Part shown: positions 7,440-35,084 of the stretch, one piece after another | Layout of the letters: every line of letters begins with the position of its first letter | How positions within the stretch are numbered: the stretch's first letter is position 1 | NCBI GenBank assembly: GCA_963736875.1 | Contig: CAVTQH010000003.1 | Coordinates: 129,756 to 193,755 of the forward strand | Direction: 5' to 3' | Length of the DNA stretch: 64,000 bases | Source: Candidatus Amesbacteria bacterium | GTDB taxonomy: Bacteria; Patescibacteriota; Microgenomatia; CAZETR01; Amesbacteraceae | Notes under the pieces: model-generated | Database searches by the model: none | What the model saw: only the letters and a program-made list of their open reading frames with translations | What the model was told of the DNA's origin: nothing | Made by a program: the position numbers and the translations under genes

Positions 7440-7443
7440 AGAG

Positions 7444-7519
7444 TGGTGGACCCAGCGGGATTCGAACCCGCCGCCTCTCGCATGCCATGCGAACGCTCTA
7501 CCAAATGAGCTATGGGCCC
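7444..7519 (-). tRNA. tRNA-Ala (anticodon GGC), 76 nt with encoded CCA
   Basis: The reverse complement folds as a cloverleaf: acceptor GGGCCCA/TGGGTCC with G3:U70 (the Ala identity pair), D-stem GCTC/GAGC, anticodon stem TTCGC/GCGAG, loop ATGGCAT (anticodon GGC), T-stem GCGGG/CCCGC and T-loop TTCGAAT. It ends in ACCA. Confidence 0.85.
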
Positions 7520-7559
7520 AAGATTAAGGATCTATTTTAGCAAATTTATTGTGGACCAT

Positions 7560-7597
7560 GGGGGAATCGCACCCCCGTATCCGCAATGCGAATGCGG
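7560..7597. terminator. Two adjacent GC-rich hairpins between the end of the 7653..9722 (-) gene and the tRNA-Ala
   Basis: GGGGG-aatcgca-CCCCC at 7560-7576 and CCGCA-atgcgaa-TGCGG at 7581-7597. There is no U-tract, so this would not be a canonical intrinsic terminator. Confidence 0.25.
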
Positions 7598-7652
7598 CGC
7601 ACTACTACTATGCTAATGGCCCACTGAGACAGATATTATTTTACCAGAGGGG

Positions 7653-10556: not shown

Positions 10557-11270
10557 TTAACGGAACAGAATAAGGGTGAGAATGAAGGTGGTAAAAAAAG
10601 ATAACAAAGCAACAATATACGGGAGAGGAGAACGGCGGGATATGTTTTCTGATACGGAGGAAGGTGTAGTCCGGGGGGCAGCGGCGGCTGAATGGATCGG
10701 GGTAACATCGGGGATAAGATTAGCCAGATCCTGAAAAGGATCCGGGATATTTTCCCGGGGAGTGGTTGCAGTCAAATCTTCCGGTATCCGGTGAGTGATG
10801 CGGGAGTACTCGGGAGGGGTGGTAACCGGTTCGGGGGTGGTGTCGGGATAGTAGACAGGAGGCGAAAAAGACGGTTCCGGGGACGGAATGACCGGCGGAG
10901 ATGACGCAAAAGTTTGAGCAGGGGGAGGTGTTTGGACCGGCGGAGGCGGAGGGGTCATATGGGGAATCGAAGGCAGAGGAAATATTTCCTGTGTGGCGCA
11001 ATAATCGATAAATTTTTTCAGTGATGATAAACGGCGTTTGGCTGTGGCCGGGGGATTGGAACTGGCCAAATATTCTTCATAACCCCGGAGAAATTCAGAA
11101 GAGATAAAAAACGGGAGAGACTGGGGGAGTAAATTCTGGCGCTGGTTTTCGGTGATAAAGGCGAAAAATAACCTAAGGTCCGAAAGATAGTTTTTAATGG
11201 TATTGACAGAGGACGTCTGAAGAGAAATATACTTTTTAAATTCCTGGATATAGTAGCGGGGGTAATCCAT
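10557..11270 (-). CDS. Membrane-anchored protein with a phage-integrase N-terminal SAM-like (core-binding) domain only, plus Pro-rich linker and C-terminal TM helix
   Basis: N-terminus 'SVNTIKNYLSDLRLFFAFI...AKRRLSSLKKFIDYC' matches the XerD/integrase N-terminal-domain pattern. There is no catalytic R-K-H-R-H-Y region. It ends in the hydrophobic stretch 'YIVALLSFFTTFILTLILF'. Confidence 0.6.
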   Translation of the reverse strand: MDYPRYYIQEFKKYISLQTSSVNTIKNYLSDLRLFFAFITENQRQNLLPQSLPFFISSEFLRGYEEYLASSNPPATAKRRLSSLKKFIDYCATQEIFPLPSIPHMTPPPPPVQTPPPAQTFASSPPVIPSPEPSFSPPVYYPDTTPEPVTTPPEYSRITHRIPEDLTATTPRENIPDPFQDLANLIPDVTPIHSAAAAPRTTPSSVSENISRRSPLPYIVALLSFFTTFILTLILFR

Positions 11271-14083: not shown

Positions 14084-14673
14084 GCGGGTTTGATGACTGG
14101 GTTGAAAAACGCAGATGGGAATTGGGGTTGATGCTTCTGGGGCTAATCCTGACCGGTCTGGGGATATTTATATGGAAATCCGAAGGGAATACACCCGGAG
14201 CGCAGGTTGTAAAAGTGGAAGGTACAGCAACAGGGGCCGGGCAATTGGTGGTGGATGTCAGCGGAGCGGTCAACCGTTCGGGTGTATATACATTACCTGC
14301 CAATACACGCGTGGAGGAAGCCATAAAAGCGGCCGGGGGATTGTCTCCCGAGGCAGATGTAAAGTGGTATGAAGCCAATGTAAACAGGGCGCGAAAAATT
14401 ACAGACGGCGAAAAGATTTACATACCCAAACTGAACACAGGCTCAAGCACAACAGATTCTGTACAAGTTTTGCAGGATACACAAATTACAAACCGGATAA
14501 GTATAAACGGGGCCGGTGTATCCGAGCTGGATACACTTCCCGGTATTGGTCCGGTGACCGCCCAAAAAATTATTGCCAACAGACCATATCAGAGTCTGGA
14601 GGAACTACTTACTAAAAAAGTGGTGGGGCAGAAAGTTTTTGATCAAATAAAAGAGCAAATAAGCCTGTGGTAA
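14080..14673 (+). CDS. comEA: ComEA-like competence protein (TM anchor + SLBB + helix-hairpin-helix)
   Basis: N-terminal TM helix. The C-terminal HhH reads 'ISINGAGVSELDTLPGIGPVTAQKIIANRP'. A 4-nt ATGA overlap with the leuS stop indicates translational coupling. Confidence 0.8.
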   Translation: MSGFDDWVEKRRWELGLMLLGLILTGLGIFIWKSEGNTPGAQVVKVEGTATGAGQLVVDVSGAVNRSGVYTLPANTRVEEAIKAAGGLSPEADVKWYEANVNRARKITDGEKIYIPKLNTGSSTTDSVQVLQDTQITNRISINGAGVSELDTLPGIGPVTAQKIIANRPYQSLEELLTKKVVGQKVFDQIKEQISLW

Positions 14674-15647
14674 ACATCAGATGGATGGCAGCGGGACTTT
14701 TGGCCTTAATATTTTTAGTCAGATACCAGGGAGTGAGGGAACAGACAATTTCTCAGACGGCTGTTAATCCGATGGGAAGCATCAGGATGATGATGCAAAA
14801 GAATCTGATCAGGTGGCTGCCGGGAGATACGGGACCGCTGGCTTCGGGAATACTTTTAGGGGGTAATGAGGGTTTGTCCAAAAAGGCCAAACAGTCTTTT
14901 ATCAGATCGGGCATCATGCATATTACGGCTGCTTCGGGATATAACGTGACGGTTGTGGCGGGCTGGATGATGGCTTTGGGAATAAGATTTGTGGGCCGGA
15001 GAAAGGCCATCTGGCTGGGGGTGGGGGGTACATTAATATATATGTGTTTAGCCGGCCTTTCGACGGCGGTGATCAGGGCCGGAGTGATGGCTATATTGAC
15101 TCTGATAGCTTCTTTTTGGGGGAGGAAAGCAGACGCCGGCTGGACGCTAATTCTTGCCTGCCTCCTGATGCTTTCCGTAAATCCCGCGTGGATTACGGAT
15201 ATCGGATTTCAACTGTCGGTGGCGGCAACTGCGGGGTTGATCTGGATAAATACGGTTCCCGGTAAAAGCCTATTGAGTGATTTTAAAACCACTGTTGTGG
15301 CTCAAATTACTACCCTACCGATAATTCTTCACCACTTCGGCAGTTTAAGTGTGATATCCCCCGCGGTAAACGGAGCGGTATTGTGGGCAGTGCCTCCGGT
15401 AATGCAGATTTCAGCGCTAGCTTCCATTGCCGGTATTATCTGGAAGCCGGCAGGCAGTATATTGGCTTTGCTGGCCTGGCCGTTTCTGACATTAATGGTC
15501 CGGGTGGTGGAATGGTCCGCTTCATGGCCGGGTGCCAGCCTGACGCTTTCCCGGCTGGGGTGGGGATGGGTGGGAGTTTACTACCTGGTGATATTTTTAA
15601 TCATCAAAATTTCAAATAAAAAGTCAGGAAATTTATGGGGAGTCTGA
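14667..15647 (+). CDS. comEC: ComEC/Rec2 'competence' membrane domain protein (N-terminal part of a split ComEC)
   Basis: Polytopic membrane ORF containing the 'ILLGGNEGLS...IMHITAASGYNV' competence-domain motif. It overlaps the comEA stop by 7 nt. Confidence 0.75.
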   Translation: MVNIRWMAAGLLALIFLVRYQGVREQTISQTAVNPMGSIRMMMQKNLIRWLPGDTGPLASGILLGGNEGLSKKAKQSFIRSGIMHITAASGYNVTVVAGWMMALGIRFVGRRKAIWLGVGGTLIYMCLAGLSTAVIRAGVMAILTLIASFWGRKADAGWTLILACLLMLSVNPAWITDIGFQLSVAATAGLIWINTVPGKSLLSDFKTTVVAQITTLPIILHHFGSLSVISPAVNGAVLWAVPPVMQISALASIAGIIWKPAGSILALLAWPFLTLMVRVVEWSASWPGASLTLSRLGWGWVGVYYLVIFLIIKISNKKSGNLWGV

Positions 15648-16369
15648 AATGGTTAATATTGGCGGGTGTAACCATCTGGATGGCAGTGCTGGCTCTGCCG
15701 GATAAGAAACTGCATGTGGTATTCTGCGATGTGGGACAGGGGGATGCCATTTTGATCAGCCGGGGAACCGATCAACTGCTGGTTGACGGCGGACCGGATG
15801 ATAAAGTGATCCGCTGCCTGTCCGATCATATGCCTTTTTATGACCGAAGAATAGAAACAGTGGTCTTGACTCATGACGATTCCGATCACAGCCGGGGAAT
15901 ATCCTATGTTAGAGATAGATATAGTGTTATATATTATGAGACGGCTCTGGTTAGGGGAGATACGGTGAAGACGGGAGGGTTTGAGTATCGGGTGGAGTGG
16001 CCGGTGGAAAGATTAATAAATAATGAGAAAGATCAGGAAGACAATACGCAGGCAACTGTCGGCCGGATTGAGTACGGTCAATTTTCCCTGCTTTTGACTT
16101 CCGACACACCCACAAAACTGTATCCGCCGGAAACAGGAATCGAGGTAGTTAAAGTCCCGCATCACGGAAGTAAAACCGATTTTGATGCGGGGTGGTGGCG
16201 CCAGGTCCGGCCGGCGCTGGCAGTGATATCGGTGGGAAAGAACAGTTACGGACATCCGGTGCCGGAAGTAATGAAAGCAATCAGTGATCTGGGGATCGGG
16301 ATTTTACGGACTGACCGGGAGGGAGATATTGAAATTGTCAGCGACGGGTTAAAATGGTGGGTGAAATGA
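15635..16369 (+). CDS. comEC: ComEC C-terminal metallo-beta-lactamase domain protein (second part of the split ComEC)
   Basis: 'VVFCDVGQGDAILI', 'THDDSDHSRG' and 'VPHHGSKTD' are MBL-fold ComEC motifs. It lies in a different frame from the upstream ORF with a 13-nt overlap. Confidence 0.75.
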   Translation: MGSLKWLILAGVTIWMAVLALPDKKLHVVFCDVGQGDAILISRGTDQLLVDGGPDDKVIRCLSDHMPFYDRRIETVVLTHDDSDHSRGISYVRDRYSVIYYETALVRGDTVKTGGFEYRVEWPVERLINNEKDQEDNTQATVGRIEYGQFSLLLTSDTPTKLYPPETGIEVVKVPHHGSKTDFDAGWWRQVRPALAVISVGKNSYGHPVPEVMKAISDLGIGILRTDREGDIEIVSDGLKWWVK

Positions 16370-21946: not shown

Positions 21947-23164
21947 ATGATTCATTCATTTTCGTGCAAGAATTTCTACTCTTTTAAGGATTTTGCAACA
22001 GTCAATTTTGTGGTAAATGATAAAGCACCGGATAACTATGGGTATTTTATGGCTAAGTCGGGGAAGCGGTTATCGAAGATTGAAACAATAATTGGGGCGA
22101 ATGCATCTGGGAAAACGAATATGTTGAGAGTGTTACCGTTTATGAAGTGGTTGATTGTGGATTCCTATGCTAGAGATCCGGCCAGTAGCATTCCGGTAAA
22201 AAGTTTTGCTTTTACCGGTGAGAAAAACAAATTATCGGAAGTGGCAGCTGATTTCGAAATTGATGGCAATATTTATAGTTATGAGTTTTGTTTGAATGAT
22301 AAGAGAATTTTATCTGAGAAACTGAGTGTAACTAATAAGTCAAGTAAAAAAGTGACTAAAAAAATGGTTTTTTGCAGGACGTGGGACAAAGCAACAAGCA
22401 ACTATGTGTGGGAAGATGCGCTTTTCCAGTTACCTAAGGGTTTTATGGATTTAGATCGTGGCAATGCCAGTGTAGTTAGTTCAGCTTTTCGGCTGGGGCA
22501 TTTAGGGAGCCAGAAGATTGTTGATGGTTGGAAAAAGGTGGAATTCAATGTGAAGGAGTTTGGTTGGATTGGGGATCTATTATCACCAGATTCCGGGCGC
22601 TATGTAATTAGCGCAGTTGATTTTTATAGTAAACCGGAAAATGCTTCCCAGAAAAAACAAGCAGATGAGATACTGGCGAGTTTCGATTTGGGTTTAAAAT
22701 CCATAGATCTTAAGAAAGAAGCTGATGAGGCAGGTAATTTTAAAATTACTGTGAGGGGAGTTCATATTTTTGATAACGGGGAAGGAAATTTGCCGTTCCA
22801 ATATGAATCAGCCGGAACAAGGCAGTTGTTTGTGCTGCTGAAGACGGTTTTGTCAGTGTTGAGCCAAGGCGGAGTGGCGGTTTTGGATGAGATGGATGCG
22901 AGTTTACATCCGGAGATAGTGCTGGCTTTAGTGAATTTGTTTTTGCAACCGGAAAAGAATCGTAATAATGCTCAGCTCATTTTTGCTACCCATGGTCACT
23001 CGATCTTGAATAGCCTGGATAAATACCAGATTATGTTGGTAGAAAAGAAGGATCACGGAGGGAGTGAGGTGTGGCGGCTAGACGATGTCTCAGGGATACG
23101 CTCTGATGAGAACTATTATTCAAAGTATATGGCCGGGGCGTATGGGGCGGTACCAAGAATCTAA
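21947..23164 (+). CDS. AAA_21-family ABC-type ATPase (AbiLi / AriA / RloA-like abortive-infection ATPase)
   Basis: N-terminal 'MIHSFSCKNFYSFKD', Walker A 'GANASGKTN', ABC-signature-like 'YESAGTRQ', Walker B/D-loop 'VAVLDEMDASLHP', and H-loop 'FATHGHS'. Sampled 60-mers are ~25-43% GC versus ~55-58% in flanking proS. Confidence 0.8.
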   Translation: MIHSFSCKNFYSFKDFATVNFVVNDKAPDNYGYFMAKSGKRLSKIETIIGANASGKTNMLRVLPFMKWLIVDSYARDPASSIPVKSFAFTGEKNKLSEVAADFEIDGNIYSYEFCLNDKRILSEKLSVTNKSSKKVTKKMVFCRTWDKATSNYVWEDALFQLPKGFMDLDRGNASVVSSAFRLGHLGSQKIVDGWKKVEFNVKEFGWIGDLLSPDSGRYVISAVDFYSKPENASQKKQADEILASFDLGLKSIDLKKEADEAGNFKITVRGVHIFDNGEGNLPFQYESAGTRQLFVLLKTVLSVLSQGGVAVLDEMDASLHPEIVLALVNLFLQPEKNRNNAQLIFATHGHSILNSLDKYQIMLVEKKDHGGSEVWRLDDVSGIRSDENYYSKYMAGAYGAVPRI

Positions 23165-23663
23165 TAAAATCCGTCACTATAAGAAAACGGCTTTAGTGTT
23201 TGGCGAAGGGTTAAAAGAGGCACGTTTTTTGAGATATTTAAACCGGTTGTACACGCGTGGAAATAGAGTGACTGTTTTTGTTCGGTCTGGGAGGGGTGGT
23301 ACGGCGGATCAGGTTGTGATTGACGCGGGCAGAGGATTGGCAGGTCATGATAAGAGGATAGTTGTATTGGATAACGACAAGCCGGTTTTGGAGATGAAGA
23401 AAGCTAGATCTGAAGCTGGCCGTAGGGGAATTGAGCTGATTGAAAACACCCCTTGTTTGGAGGCGGTTTTGTTATCAATTTTGGGGGTGGAAGTAAAAAG
23501 AAAGGGTTCGGGATGGTGCAAGAAGGAATTAGAGTCAAATTATATGGTTGAAGCTACAGAGGAAATGTATTTTCGGATGTTTCCCAAGAAACTATTAAAT
23601 AAACAAAAGGAGAAGTTTCTCATGTTGAGTAGGATAATCTCGATAATGGAAGGAAAGTTTTGA
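23142..23663 (+). CDS. RloB-like / OLD-family Toprim-like protein (AbiLii-like partner of the ATPase)
   Basis: 'TALVFGEGLKEARFL' resembles the RloB 'ILIVCEGEKTEPNYF' motif. 'IVVLDNDKP' matches the DxD Toprim motif, and 'NTPCLEAVLL' matches the RloB 'SNPCFEXWLL' motif. The start is uncertain among 23085, 23106 and 23142. It overlaps the ATPase 3' end. Confidence 0.65.
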   Translation: MGRYQESNKIRHYKKTALVFGEGLKEARFLRYLNRLYTRGNRVTVFVRSGRGGTADQVVIDAGRGLAGHDKRIVVLDNDKPVLEMKKARSEAGRRGIELIENTPCLEAVLLSILGVEVKRKGSGWCKKELESNYMVEATEEMYFRMFPKKLLNKQKEKFLMLSRIISIMEGKF

Positions 23664-23713: not shown

Positions 23714-24955
23714 ATGGCGGATATGCCGAAAAAAGAAGCGGATATTAAGTTGCCACCCGGAACAAAGGTACCGGATCATGTAGCTTTGATTTTGGACGGA
23801 AACCGCAGGTGGGCCAGAGCCCGGGGACTGCCCGCTTTTGAGGGGCACAGAGCCGGTTTTGAAGCCGGGATGAAAGTGGCCAGAGCCGCCAGAAATTTCG
23901 GGGTCCACACTTTTACCGTCTGGGGATTTTCGACGGAAAATTGGGAAAGATCGGCCGAGGAAATTGAGTGTCTGATGAAGCTTTTCCGGAAAATGGTGGA
24001 TGTTATCAGGGAGGAAGCGGTCAAGGAAAACATCCGGTTTGTGCATCTGGGAAGGAAAGACCGGTTTCCCCGGGATTTGGTTTCATATATCAGTCAGGTG
24101 GAGAAAGAAACCAGAGGCAATACCAAGCACGTTTTAAATGTGGCTCTGGATTACGGCGGGCACGACGAAATACTGCGGGCCGTAAAAAAGGTTATCAAAG
24201 ACAAAATACCCGCGGACCGGCTGGACGAGAAGATGTTTGAAAAATATCTGGATACCGGGGACCAGCCGTACCCTTATGTTGATTTGTTTATCAGAACCAG
24301 CGGGGAGCAGCGGTCTTCAGGCCTCCTGCCGTGGCAGATGCATTACGCGGAATTTTACTGGGAGCTGGATCATTTGCCGGATATGACACCGGAGAAACTG
24401 AGAGAAGCGGTGGTCGATTATTCCCGGAGAAGAAGAAGGTTCGGTGGAAATGACGCGGAGAAGCATCTGAAATTTGATCCGAAAATTGCGGCAAAATTGG
24501 AAATTGATCTGGGCAGGGAAGTGAAAGCCGGAAACGGCAAACGGTTTCGGGATCTGGTAGTAAGCTATATACGGGAGCAATACGGATTATCCAGGACATT
24601 AGCCAAAGAAGGCGGAAAAAGTCTGGCCAAAGCCCTCGTTTACCGGAAACAGGAAGACTGGGTGCAGGCCAAAGAAGCGCTTCAGGGGCTTTATGAAATT
24701 GTCAAAAAAAACCTGGGTCTGGCTTTGGAGCCGGAACTGGCAGCCCAGCTTCAGGTGAGCCTGTGGCAAAACGGGGATAACGAGGAGGATTACCGGAAAC
24801 TGTATGCCGAGACTTACCGGTTTTCGGATTTTCAGGCTTCAAAAAGCGCGCATCTGGCGTATCTGGCAAATAACGAACTGAAAAAAAACAATTTCAGGAG
24901 AGCGAGGGATTATCTGGAAAAGTTTTACGAAGCACTGAAAGAGAGAGTGGCATAG
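23714..24955 (+). CDS. uppS: Undecaprenyl-diphosphate synthase (cis-prenyltransferase) with an atypical ~170-aa C-terminal helical extension
   Basis: 'HVALILDGNRRWA', 'FTVWGFSTENWER' and the 'IRTSGEQRSSGLLPWQ' UPPS core. The core normally ends around residue 240, whereas this ORF is 413 aa. A TATAAT at 23710-23715 overlaps the first ATG, so the second ATG at 23723 may be the real leaderless start. Confidence 0.85.
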   Translation: MADMPKKEADIKLPPGTKVPDHVALILDGNRRWARARGLPAFEGHRAGFEAGMKVARAARNFGVHTFTVWGFSTENWERSAEEIECLMKLFRKMVDVIREEAVKENIRFVHLGRKDRFPRDLVSYISQVEKETRGNTKHVLNVALDYGGHDEILRAVKKVIKDKIPADRLDEKMFEKYLDTGDQPYPYVDLFIRTSGEQRSSGLLPWQMHYAEFYWELDHLPDMTPEKLREAVVDYSRRRRRFGGNDAEKHLKFDPKIAAKLEIDLGREVKAGNGKRFRDLVVSYIREQYGLSRTLAKEGGKSLAKALVYRKQEDWVQAKEALQGLYEIVKKNLGLALEPELAAQLQVSLWQNGDNEEDYRKLYAETYRFSDFQASKSAHLAYLANNELKKNNFRRARDYLEKFYEALKERVA

Positions 24956-24977
24956 ACGTTTGTGGTAAGCTAAAGGT

Positions 24978-25709
24978 GTGAAGTGTCCCGGGTGTACCAA
25001 GGAGATGGCCAAAATGTCAGTTTTAGGGATGGATGAATCCTTCCGCTGCGGTAGCTGCGGCGGGGTATGGACGGTCGGTTGGGTGATAAATTCTCTGGCA
25101 GAAGGAAAAGGACTGCGGATTGAGGAAGCGAAAATCAAAGGCGGAGGCAAAAAGATGGCGGAGAAGTATCTTTGCCCGGATGACGGAAGCTCGCTTCTGA
25201 GTGGCGAGGGAGACGGATTACCGCAGGTGGTGGAGATGTGGAAGTGCGGGAAGTGCAAACACTGGTTCCTGCCCGGAAACAGTATTTTTGAACTGACCAA
25301 GGCATTTGAAGTGAAAGCGGAATACCGGCGGTTATGGAAGAGGGGCGGTCCGGCGACGGCATTTGTACTGCCGGTGGTTCTGACTGCCGTGCTGATATTG
25401 GGTTTGGGAATGATCGTGACAGCAATCCAAAACCGCCAGCAATTACAGTCAGTGGCAGCATCACCGGTTACGGGAAAAATTTCGGTGGTGTATCTGGGGG
25501 ACAACCGGGCGGAGATAAGATTTATGACCAGCGGAGAAATTGAAATTGCTTTATACAAGCGGGAGCGGGATGACCAGTGGCAGGAGGCGATGATGCTGTC
25601 CCAGGGACAGTGGAAAGCGATTATCGTGTCCGGAGTGAATTTGAGAGAGAAACTGTGGTTGTCGCTTGACGGAAGAGTCTTCAGACTGACAGTGGGACAG
25701 AAACAGTGA
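24978..25709 (+). CDS. Paralog 1 of 3: double zinc-ribbon (MJ0042-type CxxC...CxxCGG) / single TM / C-terminal beta-rich domain protein
   Basis: 'CPGCTKEM...RCGSCGGVW' and 'CPDDGS...KCGKCKHWF', a TM helix 'FVLPVVLTAVLILGLGMIVTAI', and a ~90-aa C-terminal domain. GTG start. Confidence 0.7.
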   Translation: MKCPGCTKEMAKMSVLGMDESFRCGSCGGVWTVGWVINSLAEGKGLRIEEAKIKGGGKKMAEKYLCPDDGSSLLSGEGDGLPQVVEMWKCGKCKHWFLPGNSIFELTKAFEVKAEYRRLWKRGGPATAFVLPVVLTAVLILGLGMIVTAIQNRQQLQSVAASPVTGKISVVYLGDNRAEIRFMTSGEIEIALYKRERDDQWQEAMMLSQGQWKAIIVSGVNLREKLWLSLDGRVFRLTVGQKQ

Positions 25710-25751
25710 CGCAATTTACATTTAAATATTTAAAAATTACAATTAAACTAT

Positions 25752-26471
25752 ATGTTTTGTCCTGATTGCGGGCAGGATTTGGCGGAAGTTTCCGTGACCG
25801 GATTTGACAAGTCACGGCGCTGCGGAAACTGCGGCGGGGTGTTCATGGAAGGCTGGGTGGCCAACCGGGTAGCGGAAGGTCAGATGAAGGAGCTGCCGGA
25901 GGTAAAAACCGATATCGAGAAGTTTACGGGGAAAACCAATAAGTGTCCTGTGGACAATTCACCGCTTTTCGGCTATTCCGGGGACGATATGCCTCCCGAA
26001 GTGGTGGCCTTAAAGTGCAGTCATTGCGGCTGGTGGTGGTTTCCGATGGGCAACCTGGCTAAGTTTAAGCGGGCATATGAAGCCAAAAACAATTATCTTA
26101 AATGGTGGCGCAAAAAAAACGACGTCAGGTTGGTTGCCCTGCCGGTTCTGATGGTTCTGATACTTGCCGTGACACTGGGAATTTCGGTAGCCAATGTCAC
26201 CAGGCGCCAGTCGGTGAGCAGTTTAGCGTCCGTGGGGGCGGAGGAATTCCGGGCTACCTATCTGGGAGGAGGAGTGGAAGAAGTGAAATTCAAAACCAAT
26301 AAAACTCTGCAGTGGGTAATGGTAAAGCGGTTACAGGATGAAGAGTGGGGACCGGCGGATATAGAAGTCTTGGGTGAAGGGTGGTACCGGGTTAGACTTT
26401 CAAATATTGATGAAACCAGCGTATATCAGATGCAGATTTCGGGAGTGAGATATTACTTCAAAGCCAAATAA
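25752..26471 (+). CDS. Paralog 2 of 3: double zinc-ribbon / TM / C-terminal domain protein
   Basis: 'CPDCGQD...RCGNCGGVF' and 'CPVDNS...KCSHCGWWWFP', with a TM helix and a homologous C-terminal domain. Confidence 0.7.
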   Translation: MFCPDCGQDLAEVSVTGFDKSRRCGNCGGVFMEGWVANRVAEGQMKELPEVKTDIEKFTGKTNKCPVDNSPLFGYSGDDMPPEVVALKCSHCGWWWFPMGNLAKFKRAYEAKNNYLKWWRKKNDVRLVALPVLMVLILAVTLGISVANVTRRQSVSSLASVGAEEFRATYLGGGVEEVKFKTNKTLQWVMVKRLQDEEWGPADIEVLGEGWYRVRLSNIDETSVYQMQISGVRYYFKAK

Positions 26472-26516
26472 TTGTGAAGTGTCCTGATTGCTCATACCCC
26501 GCTGACGGAGATATCG

Positions 26517-27191
26517 GTGGAGAGTGGATCGGTTCACCGCTGTTTTAAATGCGGAGGTTTTTGGGTGGATGCGGTGACGGTCAACCAGTTGACATCGCAG
26601 CAGCTGTCGCAGTGGCGCAGAATCAGCTCCATGAATCCGCTGATGGGTCACGGGGGGAAAGGACTTTGCCCGGCCGACCAGACAATACTAACCCGGTATG
26701 TGGGAGAGGCGATTCCGCCCAATATGGTGGTGGTCCGGTGTTCCAGATGCGGCAAGTGGTGGTTTCCCGGAGACAGCCTGTTTTCCTACAAACCGGCGAT
26801 TGAAGCCAAAATAAATTTTCTGCGCCAGTGGGGAGTGACCTCAAATGCGGTATCGCTCGTTCTGCCGGTGCTGACAATTGCAGTTCTGGCACTGGGGACT
26901 CTGACCGGGGTGGATTTGGTACGAAAAAGACAGCAGGCAAACGCGGCTGCAACAATGGGCCTTCGCGAATTGTCAGTGACTTATCAGGGGCAAGGCCGGG
27001 GGCTGGTGTTATTTAAACTTAACCAGCAGGTTGGGCAAATAGAGTACAAGAGAGCGGGTGCGTGGATGTGGAATAAAGCGGAAGTGACTGCCCGGGACGG
27101 ATATTATCTGGGGAATCTGACAGGGCTTTCGGAAGGAGCGGAATATTTTCTGAAAGTGGCGGGGAAGGAAGTCAAGTTTACGGCGAAATAA
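26517..27191 (+). CDS. Paralog 3 of 3: its first zinc ribbon is disrupted by a 1-nt insertion in a C4 run (26497-26500); the intact reading would start at GTG 26474
   Basis: From GTG 26474 frame A gives 'VKCPDCSYP...' then a stop. Frame +1 continues as 'LTEISVESGSVHRCFKCGGFW', which aligns to paralog 2 'LAEVSVTGFDKSRRCGNCGGVF'. The downstream region is colinear with the paralogs. Confidence 0.6.
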   Translation: MESGSVHRCFKCGGFWVDAVTVNQLTSQQLSQWRRISSMNPLMGHGGKGLCPADQTILTRYVGEAIPPNMVVVRCSRCGKWWFPGDSLFSYKPAIEAKINFLRQWGVTSNAVSLVLPVLTIAVLALGTLTGVDLVRKRQQANAAATMGLRELSVTYQGQGRGLVLFKLNQQVGQIEYKRAGAWMWNKAEVTARDGYYLGNLTGLSEGAEYFLKVAGKEVKFTAK

Positions 27192-27192
27192 T

Positions 27193-27396
27193 TTAAGCAG
27201 TTTTTGGAGTCATTCCCAGAAGCCAGAGGATGGCTTCTTTTTTATAGCGGCGGTCACCCCGGGAGTTGATGCGGATGGGAACCAGTTTGCCGCGCTTGCC
27301 CCAGCGTTTGATGGTGAGAGTGGAGACTCGGAGAACCTGGGCGACTTCACGGACAGTGAGAAGATCCGGCAGTGAATCGAGGTTCAGAGATGTCAT
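27193..27396 (-). CDS. Small HTH DNA-binding protein, AlpA/excisionase (MerR-superfamily HTH_17)-like
   Basis: 'LLTVREVAQVLRVSTLTIKRWGKRGKLVPIRINSRGDRRYKKEAILWL' fits the AlpA/Xis pattern of HTH followed by a beta wing. Confidence 0.7.
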   Translation of the reverse strand: MTSLNLDSLPDLLTVREVAQVLRVSTLTIKRWGKRGKLVPIRINSRGDRRYKKEAILWLLGMTPKTA

Positions 27397-27454: not shown

Positions 27455-30400
27455 TTACGGGGTTCCGGTGACCGGGGCGATGCGGACAGCTCCTTCGTTA
27501 TAGACACCGCTGACTTGCTCCTGAGTAAGAGGGTAATTCCATATCTTTACCTCGTCGATTTTGCCTGAAAAATGTTGGTCCGCGCCAAGGTTATACGACC
27601 CAATACATAAAGAAGCTACTTCATCGCTCGGGTCACTTGTTTCTGATGCAGAATAAACCTGATTTCCATTAATATAGATTCTGAAAGTATCATTTATCGT
27701 ATCGAATACACAAACCGCATGGTACCAGGTTCCGGTTATACCATTAAATGAAGTTACATCGTGGTCATGATACGTACTCCCACCGATTCCAAATCCACAG
27801 TTTAGGTCGTCGGCGTCATTTATCTCTAAAAAGTAGCCATCGGCGCTGTCGCTTTTATTGACTAGTGTATCCCAGTTTCCGCTGCCCGGCCAGGCGTTTG
27901 CGTTAAACCATGCCGCAAGAGAGAATGAGCCGGTAAATTGTTGAGGATAATCATCAAAGATTTCTACATAATCCCCGGTACCGTCAAATGTTCCGCCATT
28001 ATTTATTTTTCCGGTTGCGGTTGTCGCATCTCCGCCCCTGACACCATGCATATTGTTTCCTGAAGAGTCTTTTACCTCTTCGGATGTCCCATCCCAAGAG
28101 CTCTCATCAAGTTTCCACCAGCCTACAGGTTTTCCCCGGTTATAGTCCCAGGCGATCTGGGCCGGGGTGCGGACATAATTGTATAACCTGGCTTCGTCGA
28201 TCTTACCTTTGACGGGATAAGATGCGTCACTGAATTCAATACCTCCGCTTCTGTTTTCCATGGCAACATATGTACCGACGTTGTCATCCAGATTGTCGAC
28301 TCTGATGCCGTCAAGATATATTTTGATGCCGCCGGCAGTACCGCTGCCGTCGTAGGTGGCTTCCACATGGTGCCATTGGTTAAGGGTGAAGGTGCCGGCG
28401 TCGAATCTGCGGCCGATCCTGGCACCGGCGCTGTAATCGTATAGAAAAAATTTGAGAGTGGGGGTACTGCTGATCTGGAGAGTGTATTCATTACCTTTAT
28501 CAACCATAATTTGGGCGCTGGCGCTTTGACTGAAGTTTACCCAGACAGAGACAGAAAAGGGGGAATCAGTGGTGCCGTTGCCGAAGGTGTGAAGATCGGT
28601 GTCGGAGGCTTGGGAACGATCATCTGTACCGTTGAAGTTGCCGGCAGAGCCAAATATTCCACTGGCCCAGTGGACAGGTCCGGTACCGTAAATAGTGGTG
28701 GGATAGTTATTACCCGAGCTGTCGATGTAGGAGGTGCCGGTATTTTCATCGAACTTCCATTCTCCGACCGGGGGGTTGCAGGTGCCGGTGTCTCCGGGAG
28801 GACAATATGAGCGGGCAGCGGAGGTCATGGTGGCAGAAGAGGAGGCGGTGGAAAGAACTCCCATAGAGGCGGCAAAGCCCTGGTTATAAAGAAGTTTTAC
28901 CTGGTCGGCTGTCAGGGTGGTGTTGAAGACTTTGACTTCGTCGATCAAACCGGGAAAACCGCCGGTCAAGGGAGTGTAGCTTCTGATACCGATAGTCATG
29001 TCAGCAGTTTCACTGATGGAGCCGGTATGGGTGCCGGTGGTTTCAAGAGCACCGTTGATGTACAGATTACCCTGTGAGGAATCGGAAGTGCAAGTTACAT
29101 GGTACCACTGCCCGGTGCTGATGGTGGTGGTGGAGTTCAGATTCTGGCCGTTGTAGCCGCATCTGACGGTATCATCACTGTAGACGTTAAGAAACCAGCC
29201 GTCGGAAGCGCTGTCCTGGTTGCTGACAAGATATTCAATGGCACCACTGTCGGTATCCCTTCTGATCCAGGCAGAGACGGTGAAGTCGTTGGTTGACAGC
29301 AGGTTCCATTCACCGGTAGCAACTGCATAATCATCGGTACCGGTGGTGCTTAATTTCATGGATTTTCCGTACTTGCCGTCGTTTGACCAGGAGGGGCAGG
29401 CATCATCAGCTCCCGTGGGGCAGGTGGTGCCTGTTCCGGCCAAATTAGCACCAGGGGTAGCCGTACCGGAGTTGTTGGCCGTATCACCATAACCTTCATC
29501 AAACTTGTACCAGAAAAGGGAACTGCCTACCGGACTTCCGGGGGCCGGATGGCCGGCATTCATGTCTTCGATTATCTGGGCGGGAGTGCGGGCGTAGTTA
29601 TAGATTTTGGCATCATCCATTTGACCAACATATTCATATCCTGATCCATCCCCCCCCAAGGCAAAGGTGTAAGTGGAATCGAAGGATGTGTTTATTAAAT
29701 CAGTCTCATCGGATGATGCCAGAAGGACTCCGTCTAAGTATATTTTTCCGGTATCTGTTGTGGCTGACCGTGACAAAGTGACCGTTAAGTAATGCCATAA
29801 TCCGTTCCATGTAACTATGGAGGGAGAGTAATAATAATCTCTCTGAGTGCCGTTGCCGGTCTGAAAAGCTATTCTGGTGTTTGAATAATCCCACCACAAC
29901 CAATAACCGGGGTCCGTCGCGCCACTGGCTGCGCCTTTGTATATTATTGTCATAGGGTGCGTAGTGGATGGATTGGGTTTTACCCATAAACCCAAAGTAA
30001 AACTTCCGGTAGAAGCATCAAGTCCACCATTATTTAAAGTCCATGTTCCGCCGGGATCTGTTTTTTCACCGTGTCCTCCTGTACTTGAATAGTCCACACC
30101 TCCTCCATATTTACCAGGTTTCCATTTGTAACCGGTCAAGGTTAAGTTATTACCTTTACCGCTGGTGTCATAAGCGGTACTACCGGTGTTTTCATCAAGT
30201 TTCCATTCAGCGATCGGTCCCGGAGCCCAGTTATAGAGCTGTCGGACTTCAGAGGGGGTAAAGGCACGGTTGTACAGACGGACTTCATCCAGAGTGCCGT
30301 CGTAATAATTAGAACCAACCCGGCCGATATAAAACTGATCGGCGTTGATAGCGGTATCGGATGTGACGGTAACCAAAGACCAGGTATTGGCAGAAAGGGT

Positions 30401-33400
30401 GGTACCGGCAACACCGTTAACATAGATTTGGGGGTTGGTGAAACCGTTGGCTGAAATAACACCCGAAGAGTTGGACTGGATGTTTGCGGAGGAGGAAAGA
30501 TTAATATAATAATTTGTAAGAGCATCGGGATTGGTCCAGAAAGAAACAGATTTAATGCTGTCCATTCCCGATACAGATACATCAGTAACCCGTACTTCAG
30601 CCTGATAAGCATATACGGTTGAACCTATTATGTTTAAAGCGCCGAAACTTACGGATAAAGATTGTAATTTACTCCATGTCCATCCGCCACTTGGTTCATC
30701 AAGTGTAGTGTATCCAGTCCACTGACAAGTAGTTCCGGCGGCATTCACATATCCCAATGAATCTCCACCATCATACGCAGATGCTCTTACTGATCCTGAA
30801 GTTCCCAAAGCAGAACGGCAGCCATAAAGTCGTAATTCTACCTGAGATGTTGGGCATCCGTTTGCAGGGGCGTTTGTTCCGCCTCCAGTTAAAGCACCAG
30901 GTTCCGACCCATTATTACAACTTGCACTCGTAGACGTTAAACTATCAAAAGCATCTGCATCATTACTCCAATCAGATTCTGTATCGGTGGGACCGCTATC
31001 GCTGGCATTAAAGTAGTAATCATGAGTCGAACCATCACAAGTACTAAGATATTGCGAAGATCCGGGAACATGTTCCGAACCGTTTGCGAATTTTCCGGAC
31101 GCAATTGCAACAGTATTGTTATCTGCCAGTGAATTGCCATTTCCCGAATAGTCAGTTCTTGATAAACCCGAAGTTGTTTCATCCATCTTCCAGTAACCAA
31201 CCAAACCATTGGAAAGGTAACTGTTGTCGGGGCCAAAGCGGGCAGAGGACCCGTCGGATGAACCGCGGGAGGTATAAATAGCTTTGATTTGATCAGCGGT
31301 TAACTGAGCGGCGTTGAAGCGGACTTCGTCCATGAATCCGGTAAGATAACCGGTTGAGTAATTTCCCAAAACCATTGATGAACCGCTTACGGTTGTTCCG
31401 GTTGTGACCGCCACATGCTGCCATTGGTTTGCAGTCAGGACCGGGGAAATTGTTGCCCGGCCGTTGATGTAAAAAGCGGGCGAGGTAAAACCTGTTGCGG
31501 ACAGATTTCCGGAGCCGTCTGTTTCTATCCTTGTACTTCCGCCAAGGTCTGCAAGAGCGATACTGGCAATTGTATTCGGTCTGATCCACATGGATACCGT
31601 TTTTATATTCATGTTCGATGCCAATGTAACTTTTGCAGCGGAGCCTTCAAAATAAAGACATTTACCCGATACACACATATCTTCTGTCTGCCAAGTGGGA
31701 AGGCCGCTACCTGCGAGTGTTCCGTTGATGGCATTTGAACCTGCGTTGGCCGAATCTGCGGTGGTTGTACCGTAGCCCTCATCCATCGGCCAGTAGGCAT
31801 TGGTTGCCGCGGGAGTCGGAGTCGGGGTCGGCTCTGTTTCTTCACCGGTGGGTAAACCGGCGTAAGGAACCCGGGAGGAATCGGCCGTTGGAGAGGTTGA
31901 AGGTGCCCCGGAATCGGTATAATCAACGTGGATTCTTCCGTTGCCTCCGTCACCCCCGCCGGCAATGTTTGTACCTTCGCCTCCGTCACCCCCGCCAAGA
32001 GAGGTTACCAAACTCGTTCCCAGTGTATCGGTGATTGTTTTAATAAGGACCGAACCTCCGGCACCGCCTCCTCCGTTACCGCCGTGCGTTGTTGCCTGAG
32101 TTGTCGTTTGACCCGTTGCCTGAATATAACCGTCATTGGTAGAATCCAGGGTAACCGTATTGGCACTGATATATACAATTCCTCCGCCGGTTCCTCCGTT
32201 TGTGCCGTCGGCACCATCATCTCCTGCTCCTCCACCTCCGCCGCCGGAGCCAAAAAAGATAGTGGTCAGCGCTGCCGAGCCATATGTTCCTCCTCCTCCG
32301 CCACCGGCACCGGTTCCGTTTACGTTGGCAACTCCGCCTCCTCCGGCGCCCTGGGTAGATCCGCTTCCTACACTGCCACCACCGCCGGTTCCGTTACCAC
32401 AGCCCGAGCCGCCCGAACCGGCGCTTCCGGCATTACCACCTGCCATACCACCCGATGCGCCTCCCGATGTGTCCAGACACGCACCACCCCCCCCGCCGCC
32501 GGCAGTTCCCGCACTGCCTCCGGTGCCGCCGGTACCGCCGGTGCCGCCGGGAGGGCTGGGATCATCACTATTACTGCCTCCTCCGCCGCCGCCGCCTGCA
32601 TATCCTCCCCCTCCTCCTCCGGCACCGCCTCCGGTGGAGTTATCATCCGATCCGGCTGAACCTCCTCCTCCGCCTGCACCGGTAGCTACCCCGTCGGCAG
32701 CTCCGCCGGGATTACTTCCCGCTGCCCCGTCGCCGGCTCTTCCGCCGCCCCGGGATTCACCGCCGCTAGATCCGTTACCTCCGCGGCCTGATGCTGTTCC
32801 GTCGTAACTTTCTCCTGTATTTCCGCCTATTTCTGTCAGAGTACCGGCAGTTCCCCCCGCATATCCCAAGGAATTTGCGTTGATGGTGCAGGCTGTTGCA
32901 GTACAACCCGAGGCGTTAACGGTACCTGTTGCCCGAAACGCCATCACACCACCTCTGAAATTAGTTGTTCCGTCCCATGCCGACGGGGTGAAGTCGGTTC
33001 CGGAGTTGGAGAGAGTAACACCGGTATAATTGGGAATCCTTTGGACCATTATTTTATCAGCCGTGCCGTTGTATCCGTTTACGAGGTTTCTGTCCAAAGT
33101 CAGGGTGGCGGTGGAGATGGTGGTAATCCGTCTGGTTTCGTATTGCCCGGCATTTGTTCCGCGTAAATTAATAATTAAAATTTCGTCTCCGACAGCCAGA
33201 CAGCCGGAACTCGGGGTGGATGAAAGGACAATCTGATTTGTTCCGGATGACCGGTTTTCTGTAACGGAGTAATTGACCGCGTCGCCGCCGTCGGAACATG
33301 ATCTTCCGGAAATAGAAGTAGCGGTATTAATGTTGGTATCGGCGGTTATACTTATCGAGCCATCCCTGCCGCTTCCGATGTTTATGCCCGTGGGATTGGA

Positions 33401-33832
33401 AGAGAGGGTGGTTGTTCCGTCTGTAGCTCCGGAATTGCCGTAATACATATACATGGTTGTGGCACCGGCGGGCAGGCTTGTGTAAGTAACCCAGACCACT
33501 GTTTTTCCTGATGAAGCGCTGCTGACACAATATTCCTCGTAGTAATCAAGAACAGTGGTGCCGTCGCTTTTGGTAAAGATCAGGTCATCACAGTCTGACT
33601 GGAGTTTGGTGTCATTGATCAAGGTATAAGTATCCACGGCGACCATGATGGTATAAGTGGCTGATGAGCTGTTATTGGTAATGGAAATTGCCTGACGATA
33701 AAGCCAGCTTGAGTTATACCAGGCGGCTCTGACTTTGGAAGTACGGAAGAAGATTAGAGAAATCAGGGCAAAGACCAGAACCAGAGAAGATGTGCGGGAA
33801 AGCAGGCGGATTAGTTGTTTACGTTTTTTCAT
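27455..33832 (-). CDS. Giant secreted/anchored surface protein (2125 aa) with a DUF2341-like N-terminus, multiple LamG/Laminin_G_3 (concanavalin-like) domains and a ~300-aa Gly-rich low-complexity region
   Basis: N-terminal TM/signal followed by 'AAWYNSSWLYRQAISITN'. There are repeated 'DEVR(I/L)YN(R/Y)A.T..E(V/I)' Laminin_G_3 hallmark motifs. The shared linker 'PAQIIEDMNAGHPAPGSPVGS' is also found in the 2032- and 2904-aa proteins. The Gly-rich block spans ~32000-32800. Confidence 0.8.
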   Translation of the reverse strand: MKKRKQLIRLLSRTSSLVLVFALISLIFFRTSKVRAAWYNSSWLYRQAISITNNSSSATYTIMVAVDTYTLINDTKLQSDCDDLIFTKSDGTTVLDYYEEYCVSSASSGKTVVWVTYTSLPAGATTMYMYYGNSGATDGTTTLSSNPTGINIGSGRDGSISITADTNINTATSISGRSCSDGGDAVNYSVTENRSSGTNQIVLSSTPSSGCLAVGDEILIINLRGTNAGQYETRRITTISTATLTLDRNLVNGYNGTADKIMVQRIPNYTGVTLSNSGTDFTPSAWDGTTNFRGGVMAFRATGTVNASGCTATACTINANSLGYAGGTAGTLTEIGGNTGESYDGTASGRGGNGSSGGESRGGGRAGDGAAGSNPGGAADGVATGAGGGGGSAGSDDNSTGGGAGGGGGGYAGGGGGGGSNSDDPSPPGGTGGTGGTGGSAGTAGGGGGGACLDTSGGASGGMAGGNAGSAGSGGSGCGNGTGGGGSVGSGSTQGAGGGGVANVNGTGAGGGGGGTYGSAALTTIFFGSGGGGGGAGDDGADGTNGGTGGGIVYISANTVTLDSTNDGYIQATGQTTTQATTHGGNGGGGAGGSVLIKTITDTLGTSLVTSLGGGDGGEGTNIAGGGDGGNGRIHVDYTDSGAPSTSPTADSSRVPYAGLPTGEETEPTPTPTPAATNAYWPMDEGYGTTTADSANAGSNAINGTLAGSGLPTWQTEDMCVSGKCLYFEGSAAKVTLASNMNIKTVSMWIRPNTIASIALADLGGSTRIETDGSGNLSATGFTSPAFYINGRATISPVLTANQWQHVAVTTGTTVSGSSMVLGNYSTGYLTGFMDEVRFNAAQLTADQIKAIYTSRGSSDGSSARFGPDNSYLSNGLVGYWKMDETTSGLSRTDYSGNGNSLADNNTVAIASGKFANGSEHVPGSSQYLSTCDGSTHDYYFNASDSGPTDTESDWSNDADAFDSLTSTSASCNNGSEPGALTGGGTNAPANGCPTSQVELRLYGCRSALGTSGSVRASAYDGGDSLGYVNAAGTTCQWTGYTTLDEPSGGWTWSKLQSLSVSFGALNIIGSTVYAYQAEVRVTDVSVSGMDSIKSVSFWTNPDALTNYYINLSSSANIQSNSSGVISANGFTNPQIYVNGVAGTTLSANTWSLVTVTSDTAINADQFYIGRVGSNYYDGTLDEVRLYNRAFTPSEVRQLYNWAPGPIAEWKLDENTGSTAYDTSGKGNNLTLTGYKWKPGKYGGGVDYSSTGGHGEKTDPGGTWTLNNGGLDASTGSFTLGLWVKPNPSTTHPMTIIYKGAASGATDPGYWLWWDYSNTRIAFQTGNGTQRDYYYSPSIVTWNGLWHYLTVTLSRSATTDTGKIYLDGVLLASSDETDLINTSFDSTYTFALGGDGSGYEYVGQMDDAKIYNYARTPAQIIEDMNAGHPAPGSPVGSSLFWYKFDEGYGDTANNSGTATPGANLAGTGTTCPTGADDACPSWSNDGKYGKSMKLSTTGTDDYAVATGEWNLLSTNDFTVSAWIRRDTDSGAIEYLVSNQDSASDGWFLNVYSDDTVRCGYNGQNLNSTTTISTGQWYHVTCTSDSSQGNLYINGALETTGTHTGSISETADMTIGIRSYTPLTGGFPGLIDEVKVFNTTLTADQVKLLYNQGFAASMGVLSTASSSATMTSAARSYCPPGDTGTCNPPVGEWKFDENTGTSYIDSSGNNYPTTIYGTGPVHWASGIFGSAGNFNGTDDRSQASDTDLHTFGNGTTDSPFSVSVWVNFSQSASAQIMVDKGNEYTLQISSTPTLKFFLYDYSAGARIGRRFDAGTFTLNQWHHVEATYDGSGTAGGIKIYLDGIRVDNLDDNVGTYVAMENRSGGIEFSDASYPVKGKIDEARLYNYVRTPAQIAWDYNRGKPVGWWKLDESSWDGTSEEVKDSSGNNMHGVRGGDATTATGKINNGGTFDGTGDYVEIFDDYPQQFTGSFSLAAWFNANAWPGSGNWDTLVNKSDSADGYFLEINDADDLNCGFGIGGSTYHDHDVTSFNGITGTWYHAVCVFDTINDTFRIYINGNQVYSASETSDPSDEVASLCIGSYNLGADQHFSGKIDEVKIWNYPLTQEQVSGVYNEGAVRIAPVTGTP

Positions 33833-34554
33833 AGTATTTCATTTTCCAACTGGTTTAATACTTCGAATTTTAAAGACTTGCGGATTGTCTGATACTTGTC
33901 TGAGGGTAACAGTGTATTAAGGTCCTCATTTATAGCAGTGCCGGTAACCTTTTGTTCGATAAAGGATTTAAGAGCAACCAGAAATTCTTTTACCGGAAGA
34001 CCGGTTCTTTCTTTGATGATACCTGTATCGTATTTGTACCCGCTGATAAAAAAGTGGTGGATGTCGTAAATATCCCTGCCGGCGATTGAACCATGTTTTT
34101 CGTATCTGTCCAGAACAGCTACCAACTTGTGAGCGAACATGGTTTCTACCGTTTGACAAATCAGGTAACGGTCTATTTCGGATAAATAAGAGGGGAGATG
34201 TTTATCAGACAGAAACGGGTGATTGACGGCGTCGATCTTTATGCTATTTCTTTGATTGTTTTGGGCTTCATATCGGACTACATATTGGATCGAATTGATA
34301 CTTTGGTCTTTAATTTCCAGGTTGAGTGTTTTAAACGTTTTTTCCAGATGGTTTTTTATAGTTTTAATATTTGCTTCTTTTTGAATATCGAAATCAAGGT
34401 CGACAGAAAACCTGTCCAGCCGGCCAAGCATGGAAGCGCAGGTACCACCTTTAAAAATAAGAGAATTAGTTAAAATGTTATTGTCGGCAATTTCGATTAA
34501 CAGACGGTAGAGCTGACCCCGATGGATGGCGTCTGTGGCTTTGGGCAGTATCAT
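33829..34554 (-). CDS. abiEii: AbiEii/AbiGii-family nucleotidyltransferase toxin (DUF1814)
   Basis: 'LIFKGGTCASMLGRLDRFSVDLDFD' matches the AbiEii KGGTAL...RFSEDLDF motif. Its stop overlaps the start of the 2125-aa gene by 4 nt. A sampled 60-mer is ~38% GC. Confidence 0.8.
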   Translation of the reverse strand: MILPKATDAIHRGQLYRLLIEIADNNILTNSLIFKGGTCASMLGRLDRFSVDLDFDIQKEANIKTIKNHLEKTFKTLNLEIKDQSINSIQYVVRYEAQNNQRNSIKIDAVNHPFLSDKHLPSYLSEIDRYLICQTVETMFAHKLVAVLDRYEKHGSIAGRDIYDIHHFFISGYKYDTGIIKERTGLPVKEFLVALKSFIEQKVTGTAINEDLNTLLPSDKYQTIRKSLKFEVLNQLENEIL

Positions 34555-35084
34555 ATATATCCAATCTCCTTTCTTAATCGGGTAATCTTATCCCAGTCAA
34601 TTTTCGTGGTGTTGTCGAAGTGGTATCGGGGGTTGAAATAAAGCATATCGGCAATTGCCCTGTCGGTGGTAGCCTCAAGATATTTTCCGTTATTCACAAC
34701 TCCCGATGTTTGAAATAAGTATTTGTCTCCCAGCTGGCGGCTCAGATATGAGTAATCACCGATTTTAATCTGACGGTTTTTGGTGGAGCAAAAAGTTATA
34801 GGTTCAATTTTTTGAAAAATGACGCCATTTTTTGCCAGGACGGTTTCAGTACTGAGATAGGAGTACTGATGCAGTGCCGTTGTGCCCAATTCTACCGGGT
34901 CAAGTTTTTCAAAAGGCACGACAGAATAAAAACCCCGGTAAATCGGAATCAGAACGCCTTTTTTGACATACCGCCCCAGCGCAGAATACAGAGTTCTTTT
35001 ATTTGATATGCTCCAAAGCAGTTCCAGGTCTTTGGTATGAAATAACCTGCGATCCAGCTTGAGAAGTATATCTATCCTATTCAT
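34551..35084 (-). CDS. abiEi: AbiEi-family antitoxin / transcriptional regulator
   Basis: N-terminal wHTH-like 'RTLYSALGRYVKKGVLIPIYRGFYSV' fits the AbiEi_4 'rlvk.G.l.rv.rGvY' pattern. It overlaps abiEii by 4 nt (ATGA). Confidence 0.7.
   Translation of the reverse strand: MNRIDILLKLDRRLFHTKDLELLWSISNKRTLYSALGRYVKKGVLIPIYRGFYSVVPFEKLDPVELGTTALHQYSYLSTETVLAKNGVIFQKIEPITFCSTKNRQIKIGDYSYLSRQLGDKYLFQTSGVVNNGKYLEATTDRAIADMLYFNPRYHFDNTTKIDWDKITRLRKEIGYI

Follow-up and report, generated by a model that had tools for sequence, protein, structure and literature searches.

A tandem array of three membrane-protein genes

The window analyzed here, a 64-kb stretch of DNA from a relative of Candidatus Amesbacteria (Patescibacteria, Microgenomates group), carries three co-oriented genes, designated copies 1, 2 and 3 (c1, c2 and c3), each encoding a protein of ~240 amino acids (aa). 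They lie between uppS and a gene for a giant LamG-repeat surface protein, where a preliminary description of this DNA had placed them, and the coordinates of all features are collected in Table 1. Pairwise identities between the three proteins are 30%, 27% and 33%, with BLASTP E-values of 5e-42, 6e-30 and 6e-44, in agreement with the earlier reading of the genes as diverged tandem paralogues. The same description had regarded the expansion as old. The longest DNA direct repeats across the array measure 15 nucleotides (nt), so the duplication must be old, and a recent repeat or an assembly duplication is ruled out on the same ground. The three genes are true, old paralogues of one family of bitopic membrane proteins.

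Each copy consists of a first zinc ribbon of the PF13453 type, a second ribbon with a CPxD/CxxC motif, a juxtamembrane helix, a transmembrane (TM) helix and an FN3-like domain. This layout matches the double zinc ribbon, single TM helix and extracytoplasmic domain, now put at ~80 aa, that had been proposed from the open reading frames (ORFs). In the NCBI/ENA annotation copy 1 begins at an internal ATG (231 aa, P0028), with loss of the first CPxC (window 24978-25013), and several copy-2 orthologues are likewise under-called in public annotation, at 204-208 aa.

Table 1 Features of the zinc-ribbon array and its immediate surroundings (window coordinates).
Feature	Position	Strand	Description
uppS (PF01255)	23714..24955	+	413 aa; stop codon 22 nt before copy 1; precedes the array in Amesbacteria as a conserved neighbour
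Copy 1 (c1)	24978..25709	+	243 aa, GTG start
Promoter-like site TTTACA-17-TACAAT	25715..25743	+	In the AT-rich 42-nt spacer 5' of copy 2; consensus match only
Copy 2 (c2)	25752..26471	+	239 aa, ATG start
Copy 2, ribbon 1	25752-25886	+	aa 1-45; AlphaFold2 model
Copy 2, ribbon 2	25938-26051	+	aa 63-100; AlphaFold2 model
Copy 2, TM helix	26127-26207	+	aa 126-152; AlphaFold2 model
Copy 2, beta-sandwich	26244-26462	+	aa 165-237; AlphaFold2 model
Copy 3, 5' fragment	26474..26548	+	GTG start, MKCPDCSY; stop 26546-26548
CCCC run, frameshift site	26497..26500	+	One C in excess of the frame kept by all orthologues examined
Copy 3, main ORF	26517..27191	+	224 aa from GTG 26517
MerR/HTH_17-type helix-turn-helix gene	27193..27396	-	67 aa; convergent with copy 3; conserved array neighbour
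Terminator-like hairpin AGAAGCCA-GAGGA-TGGCTTCT, then T run	27218..27244	+	Directly 3' of copy 3; within the convergent helix-turn-helix gene
Giant DUF2341/LamG-repeat surface protein	27455..33832	-	2125 aa; first gene of the giant-protein locus flanking the array

The N-terminal module contains two ribbons of the PF13453 type

Ribbon 1 has the motif CPxC...CxxCGG, in keeping with the PF13453 pattern CPxC...CxxCGGxW(F/L)D. Ribbon 2 of the Amesbacteria group reads CPxD...CxxC and offers three cysteines and an aspartate, with P66 and D68 invariant in the group alignments; in the wider family its first knuckle is either CPxC or CPxD, position 68 being Cys or Asp. Of the two CPxC ribbons first described, ribbon 1 therefore stands as reported, whereas ribbon 2 carries an aspartate that is invariant in the close family. 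The cysteine ligands of the ribbons are invariant or nearly so across every family alignment, and from this conservation both the Cys4 and the Cys3Asp sites are predicted to bind zinc.

Profile searches assigned the ribbons to PF13453 (Zn_ribbon_TFIIB; gathering cut-off 22 bits). Ribbon 1 of copy 3, once its reading frame is corrected as described below, scored 33.9 bits, while copies 1 and 2 fell just under the cut-off at 21.5 and 19.6 bits. All 31 family members scanned matched PF13453 at E<=0.1, the best at E 8.2e-12. The preliminary description had called the ribbons MJ0042-like. This label was rejected, as was DZR, because model scores were under the cut-offs: TIGR02098 (cut-off 20.9) reached at best 17.2 bits, in copy 3, PF13717 (cut-off 30.3) at best 18.3 bits, and PF13719 gave no match. 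When ribbon-2 segments were isolated from seven distant members, they scored 24-38 bits against PF13453, CPxD variants included. The corresponding segments of the window copies did not match PF13453, and those of copies 2 and 3 matched only PF13717, well under its cut-off; ribbon 2 of the window copies nevertheless aligns column for column with ribbon 2 of the distant members. Judged from these scores and alignments, ribbon 2 is a second, more degenerate PF13453 domain.

A profile of the family searched against the PDB matched the ribbon module to ZifS (8yoz_A, E 4.7e-7). ZifS (8YOZ) was also the top Foldseek match of the N-terminal model, with E 0.4 and a probability of 0.75. Modelled alone by AlphaFold2, the N-terminal 124 residues form one compact unit with a predicted local distance difference test score (pLDDT) of 83 and a predicted template modelling score of 0.76.

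A single membrane helix separates the ribbons from a predicted FN3-like domain

The AlphaFold2 model of full-length copy 2, built from a 31-sequence alignment, has a pLDDT of 86 and shows three-stranded ribbons at aa 9-32 and 71-97, a long helix at aa 101-122, the TM helix (aa 126-152) and a 7-strand sandwich (aa 165-237). A single, strongly hydrophobic segment lies around residues 125-150 of every window copy, with seven cysteines on its N-terminal side and none on its C-terminal side. The same distribution holds family-wide: a single hydrophobic peak was found in 80 of 80 members, with 7-8 cysteines before it and ~0 after. Lysines and arginines flanking the TM segment of copies 1 and 2 number 4-6 on the N-terminal side versus 1-3 on the C-terminal side; the basic stretch noted earlier ahead of the helix is clear in these two copies, but not in copy 3. 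The predicted topology is N-in/C-out, which would place the zinc ribbons in the cytoplasm and the FN3-like domain on the cell surface near the membrane. The juxtamembrane helix is amphipathic, and its motif FKxAQxxKxxYxKxWxxPLxS is strongly conserved in the family.

Beyond the membrane, the model predicts a short linker followed by a 7-stranded FN3-like beta-sandwich of ~75 aa, the strands of which have pLDDT >90. A Foldseek search of the sandwich against the PDB returned only FN3-type folds, at E 5e-3 to 2e-2 and none at or below 1e-3; these comprised the interleukin-4 (IL-4) and IL-13 receptors, the N-terminal domain of purple acid phosphatase and the FN3 domain of integrin beta4. The C-terminal domain of the window copies had no significant Pfam match; that of distant homologues is precomputed as PF16656 (Pur_ac_phosph_N). 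We found no catalytic domain in these proteins.

The array is a local expansion of a broad family

A word-indexed search yielded only ~50 close clusters, and scanning genome contigs with a single protein gave no matches. An exhaustive profile search retrieved 2295 representatives at E<=1e-3, 335 at E<=1e-10 and 66 at E<=1e-30. The best 150 profile matches are mostly proteins of 245-265 aa aligned end to end; about 15 of these 150 are giant proteins that align only via FN3 repeats. Distant members have the same architecture as the window copies and are single-copy in those examined. The family is possibly confined to bacteria of the candidate phyla radiation (CPR). It is uncharacterised, but it is built from known domains for which Pfam models already exist, and on present evidence it does not represent a new mechanism. 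Nor is the triplet an isolated novelty. Searching related genomes for this architecture, as had been suggested, led to a wide family but to no neighbour conserved among the distant members examined.

Among related loci, numbered here with the prefix L, arrays range from one to four copies. Triplets in the conserved order c1-c2-c3 occur in L001/L009, L004-L007, L010, L024, L030 and L034; L011 shows c1-c2 followed by the contig edge; pairs were found in L002, L008, L013, L014, L029, L033 and L035, and four copies in L026 (1610-4618). The last copy is shortened in two lineages (L013, L035, L036 and L037-L043), stopping a little way past the TM helix at 157-165 aa, with no FN3-like domain. These truncated copies lie at 10795-11292 in L013, where an ATPase gene follows directly 3', and at 3905-4402 in L036. 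The Amesbacteria arrays are a lineage-specific tandem expansion of the wider family, in which the last copy has repeatedly decayed.

The copies and their domains are conserved to different degrees. Over the same genome pairs, c2 orthologues are the best conserved (51-58% identity), compared with 40-44% for c1 and 41-51% for c3. The ribbons form the most conserved region, at 56-73% identity within orthologue groups and 38-39% between paralogues, and the FN3-like domain the least conserved, at 29-52% and 23%, respectively.

Copy 3 shows an apparent single-base frameshift

Two bases past the stop codon of c2, a GTG at 26474 opens a 24-codon frame (MKCPDCSY...) that exits the family frame at the CCCC run. 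Deletion of one C from this run restores a full-length protein of 238 aa (MKCPDCSYPLTEISVESGSVHRCFKCGGFW...), collinear with copies 1 and 2 as well as with intact orthologues, which bears out the 1-nt insertion reported in the preliminary description. The extra C is unique to the window sequence, the N-terminus being intact in every other copy-3 orthologue recovered. Downstream of the shift, copy 3 has kept all family-invariant residues, and this lack of further damage indicates that the lesion is either very recent or an artefact.

Existing gene calls do not settle the matter. The NCBI/ENA version of copy 3 (26565-27191, 208 aa, P0202) starts at GTG 26565, cutting off the whole first ribbon, and the JGI protein P0033, 91% identical to copy 3, was called from the same start position. 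This GTG sits 7 nt after a GGAGG sequence (26553-26557) that arises from Cys-Gly-Gly codons. Gene callers could therefore choose 26565 whether the upstream region is intact or broken, and the starts of P0202 and P0033 do not decide whether the frameshift is real. Should the lesion be genuine, translation could restart at GTG 26565, with GGAGG ahead of it, and yield a protein without ribbon 1.

We see two possible origins for the frameshift, a consensus error and a very recent lesion, and give an even chance to an assembly or consensus error, with the gene intact in the organism. Such an error would fit a single-base excess in a C homopolymer, the undamaged sequence downstream with its invariant residues all present, and the intact N-terminus of the other copy-3 orthologues. 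The window also contains at least two, probably three, more frame changes, in giant genes; these fall in repetitive genes, however, and could be real themselves. Real loss of copy 3 is plausible because the last array copy has decayed independently in other genomes, there by truncation after the TM helix. A programmed frameshift at CCC-C is unlikely, since no orthologue has the site, nothing resembling a stimulatory element was noticed, and translation in the zero frame ends 16 codons later.

The apparent frame changes in the giant surface-protein genes, all on the minus strand, lie at ~41820-41880, ~51116-51133 and ~53156-53337. At ~41.85 kb and ~51.12 kb single homologues align across two reading frames, and the site at ~41.85 kb is repairable by one C fewer in a CCC run; at ~53.2 kb the frame change is deduced from overlapping ORFs only. 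These sites represent either pseudogenised genes or consensus indels. ComEC is also divided between two ORFs (14667-16369, plus strand) with a 13-nt overlap, one holding the Competence domain (14667-15647) and the other the Lactamase_B domain (15635-16369); either a natural split or one more frame change could explain this.

Gene neighbourhood of the array

In Amesbacteria the gene order is uppS, polyprenyl synthase, the array, the 67-aa helix-turn-helix (HTH) gene on the opposite strand and the giant LamG proteins. UppS combines a PF01255 domain at aa 26-244 with a C-terminal extension of ~160 aa that has no Pfam match and is conserved in length (407-419 aa in total) in every Amesbacteria locus seen. 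Between uppS and the array, every related locus (L001, L002 and L004-L008) has a polyprenyl synthase gene (PF00348); in the window it is absent at this position (24955-24978) and was not found among the scanned ORFs. In L008 a carotenoid-type set, consisting of Caroten_synth, Amino_oxidase/CrtI-like, SQS_PSY, UbiA and GT2 genes (3911-9269), occupies the space between the polyprenyl synthase and the zinc-ribbon pair; the L008 array is related to those of Amesbacteria, and carotenoid genes would be unusual in a CPR genome.

The 67-aa HTH gene also occurs in L013 (12475-12678), L005 (10724-10927) and L008 (10687-10890), and has a conserved TTGAC...TAAT promoter-like region upstream. The window and L013 products share ~95% identity, against only ~35-50% for the adjoining zinc-ribbon genes. 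Recent horizontal transfer as the cause of this identity was ruled out: synonymous sites of the gene differ, which argues for strong purifying selection instead. The ORFs scanned in the window between 19.5 and 35 kb yielded no sigma-factor domain, as the preliminary description had indicated for the adjacent genes, and neither did the called genes of L001-L008, L015, L016, L018, L019 and L022.

Distant members are found in other surroundings. L015 and L016 are closely related and were treated as one context; in both, the gene follows that of a secreted glycosyl-hydrolase-like protein (1300-1400 aa) on its 3' side, and in L022 it likewise follows that of a CAP-domain protein. The L018 member adjoins S1 and HIT genes, and the L019 member GalT and Pth genes. 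The linkage to uppS is absent in these distant members. It is thus specific to one lineage and no basis for a functional claim, which weakens a functional connection to uppS.

Several mobile or defence-related elements were observed in the window. An AbiL-type abortive-infection pair, AbiLi (AAA_21 ATPase, E 3e-76) and AbiLii (RloB-like, E 3e-13), lies between proS and uppS (21947-23663, plus strand) and looks like a defence-gene insertion because relatives carry unrelated genes at this position. An AbiEii/AbiEi toxin-antitoxin pair (33829-35084, minus strand) is wedged between two giant LamG genes. Further upstream, an IS200-like Y1 transposase ORF (9816-10517, plus strand) adjoins an ORF (10557-11270, minus strand) that matches only a phage integrase N-terminal SAM-like domain, and a pair of adjoining tRNA-Ala genes (7444-7622) is close by. 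A defence role for the array itself was rejected: PADLOC gave no match for the three copies, though the AbiL and AbiE pairs are close.

Discussion

The closest known relatives of the ribbon module are ZifS of Thermus thermophilus (TTHA0897, 8YOZ) and other PF13453 proteins, which belong to the same ribbon family and have CPxC...CxxCGGxW(L/F)D followed by a short helix. ZifS is a soluble protein of 82 aa with one ribbon, whereas the window proteins fuse two ribbons to a TM helix and an external FN3-like domain. That domain is modelled as a 7-strand sandwich with FN3-type folds as its best PDB matches, and has no phosphatase domain attached.

The layout had initially been compared with that of zinc-binding anti-sigma factors. 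Like RsiW, RslA and other zinc-associated anti-sigma (ZAS, zf-HC2) factors, the window proteins are predicted to combine a zinc-binding N-terminal part in the cytoplasm with a single TM helix and a C-terminal domain outside it. ZAS proteins carry HxxxCxxC in a helical anti-sigma domain and are encoded beside the cognate extracytoplasmic function (ECF) sigma gene. The modelled window protein instead shows three-stranded beta-ribbons, no sigma gene was found nearby, and PF13490 (zf-HC2) was matched by none of the 31 members scanned. What survives of the anti-sigma analogy is accordingly the shared layout, and ZAS membership was rejected on the missing hidden Markov model (HMM) match, the wrong fold and the lack of a sigma neighbour in the loci examined.

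A second parallel is ZitP, a polarity and pilus regulator of Caulobacter crescentus, whose cytoplasmic zinc ribbon binds PopZ while its periplasmic DUF3426 domain recruits CpaM (PMC5182063). The likeness lies in the layout, with an N-terminal C4 zinc ribbon, predicted here to be cytoplasmic as well, joined through one TM helix to a beta-rich domain on the other side of the membrane. ZitP, however, is alphaproteobacterial and has one PF13719 ribbon with DUF3426, compared with two PF13453 ribbons and an FN3-like domain here, and neither PF13719 nor DUF3426 was matched by the window copies or the family members scanned. Because the domain families differ, we treat ZitP as an analogy and not as a sign of membership.

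By analogy with ZitP, we tentatively favour, at somewhat less than an even chance, a non-enzymatic transmembrane adaptor or signal transducer. This choice follows from the conserved double ribbon, the membrane-proximal helix, the single TM helix and the fast-evolving FN3-like domain, together with the lack of a catalytic domain. The conserved ribbon module would bind a common cytoplasmic partner, either protein or nucleic acid, the fast-evolving FN3-like domains would differ between paralogues in the extracellular or envelope partners that they contact, and the paralogues may work as hetero-oligomers. Several points weigh against an adaptor or transducer. Zinc binding, topology and oligomerisation are all predictions. 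The positive-inside bias is weak across the family (2.45 versus 2.21 K/R), and the Foldseek match of the ribbon module to ZifS is weak as well. Distant members, in five independent contexts, share no neighbour and are each single-copy, so that gene context gives no functional handle; the adjacency to uppS, the HTH gene and LamG genes is limited to one lineage and could be inherited synteny. In the literature searched we found no publication on the function of PF13453 proteins or ZifS, and partner binding therefore remains a generic claim.

Two other roles deserve consideration. A membrane-tethered transcription regulator, anti-sigma-like or ToxR-like, appears unlikely to us. The binding partner of its ribbons would be a sigma factor, RNA polymerase, the neighbouring 67-aa HTH protein or nucleic acid, to be released or activated when the FN3-like domain senses an envelope or surface cue. 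The arrangement of a cytoplasmic zinc module, one TM helix and an external domain would suit this role, sigma factors or RNA polymerase are the targets of some small zinc-binding proteins, CsfB/Gin and DksA among them, and some family members bear the IMG name 'Zn-finger nucleic acid-binding protein'. The very conserved small HTH gene convergent with the array in the window, L005, L008 and L013 points the same way, but it is absent beside distant single-copy members, lies on the opposite strand and apparently has its own promoter-like region. A regulator of this kind also has to contend with the lack of any match to zf-HC2/ZAS or another anti-sigma model, with a beta-ribbon in place of a helical fold, and with the absence of a sigma gene from every locus examined.

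Quite unlikely, in our estimate, is an accessory function in envelope biogenesis. Here the proteins would arrange large secreted or surface proteins at the membrane or anchor them there, or do the same for the assembly of polyprenyl-phosphate-linked glycans, and the amphipathic juxtamembrane helix would lie at the inner leaflet. The strong conservation of the juxtamembrane motif speaks for such a function. So does the position of the Amesbacteria array between uppS/polyprenyl synthase and giant LamG surface proteins, yet uppS linkage is not seen outside Amesbacteria, the carotenoid cluster of L008 separates the isoprenoid genes from the array, and the window lacks the polyprenyl synthase gene at this position. 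Giant proteins are moreover common in these genomes, which makes chance adjacency to them likely. Some distant members do lie directly 3' of genes for a secreted glycosyl-hydrolase-like protein (L015, L016) or a CAP-domain protein (L022), but others are found among housekeeping genes.

A more specific form of the favoured transducer model would define a previously unrecognised, possibly CPR-specific class of one-pass transducers, in which tandem ZifS-like ribbons relay contacts made by rapidly diversifying surface FN3-like domains, for instance with a host cell or with the bacterium's own giant proteins, to a conserved cytoplasmic target, the array acting as a multi-specific hetero-oligomeric receptor. 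We regard this extension as speculative and its probability as low.

The genomes of CPR bacteria, or Patescibacteria, are tiny, and an attached life on other cells is common among them; very few of the membrane proteins that could connect their surface and cytoplasm have an assigned role. The family described here comprises hundreds of sequence clusters, has a clear inside/outside domain logic and forms a dynamic array in one lineage, which makes it a tractable candidate for a link between the surface and the cytoplasm. The small size of its domains suits them to structural, zinc-binding and interaction studies.

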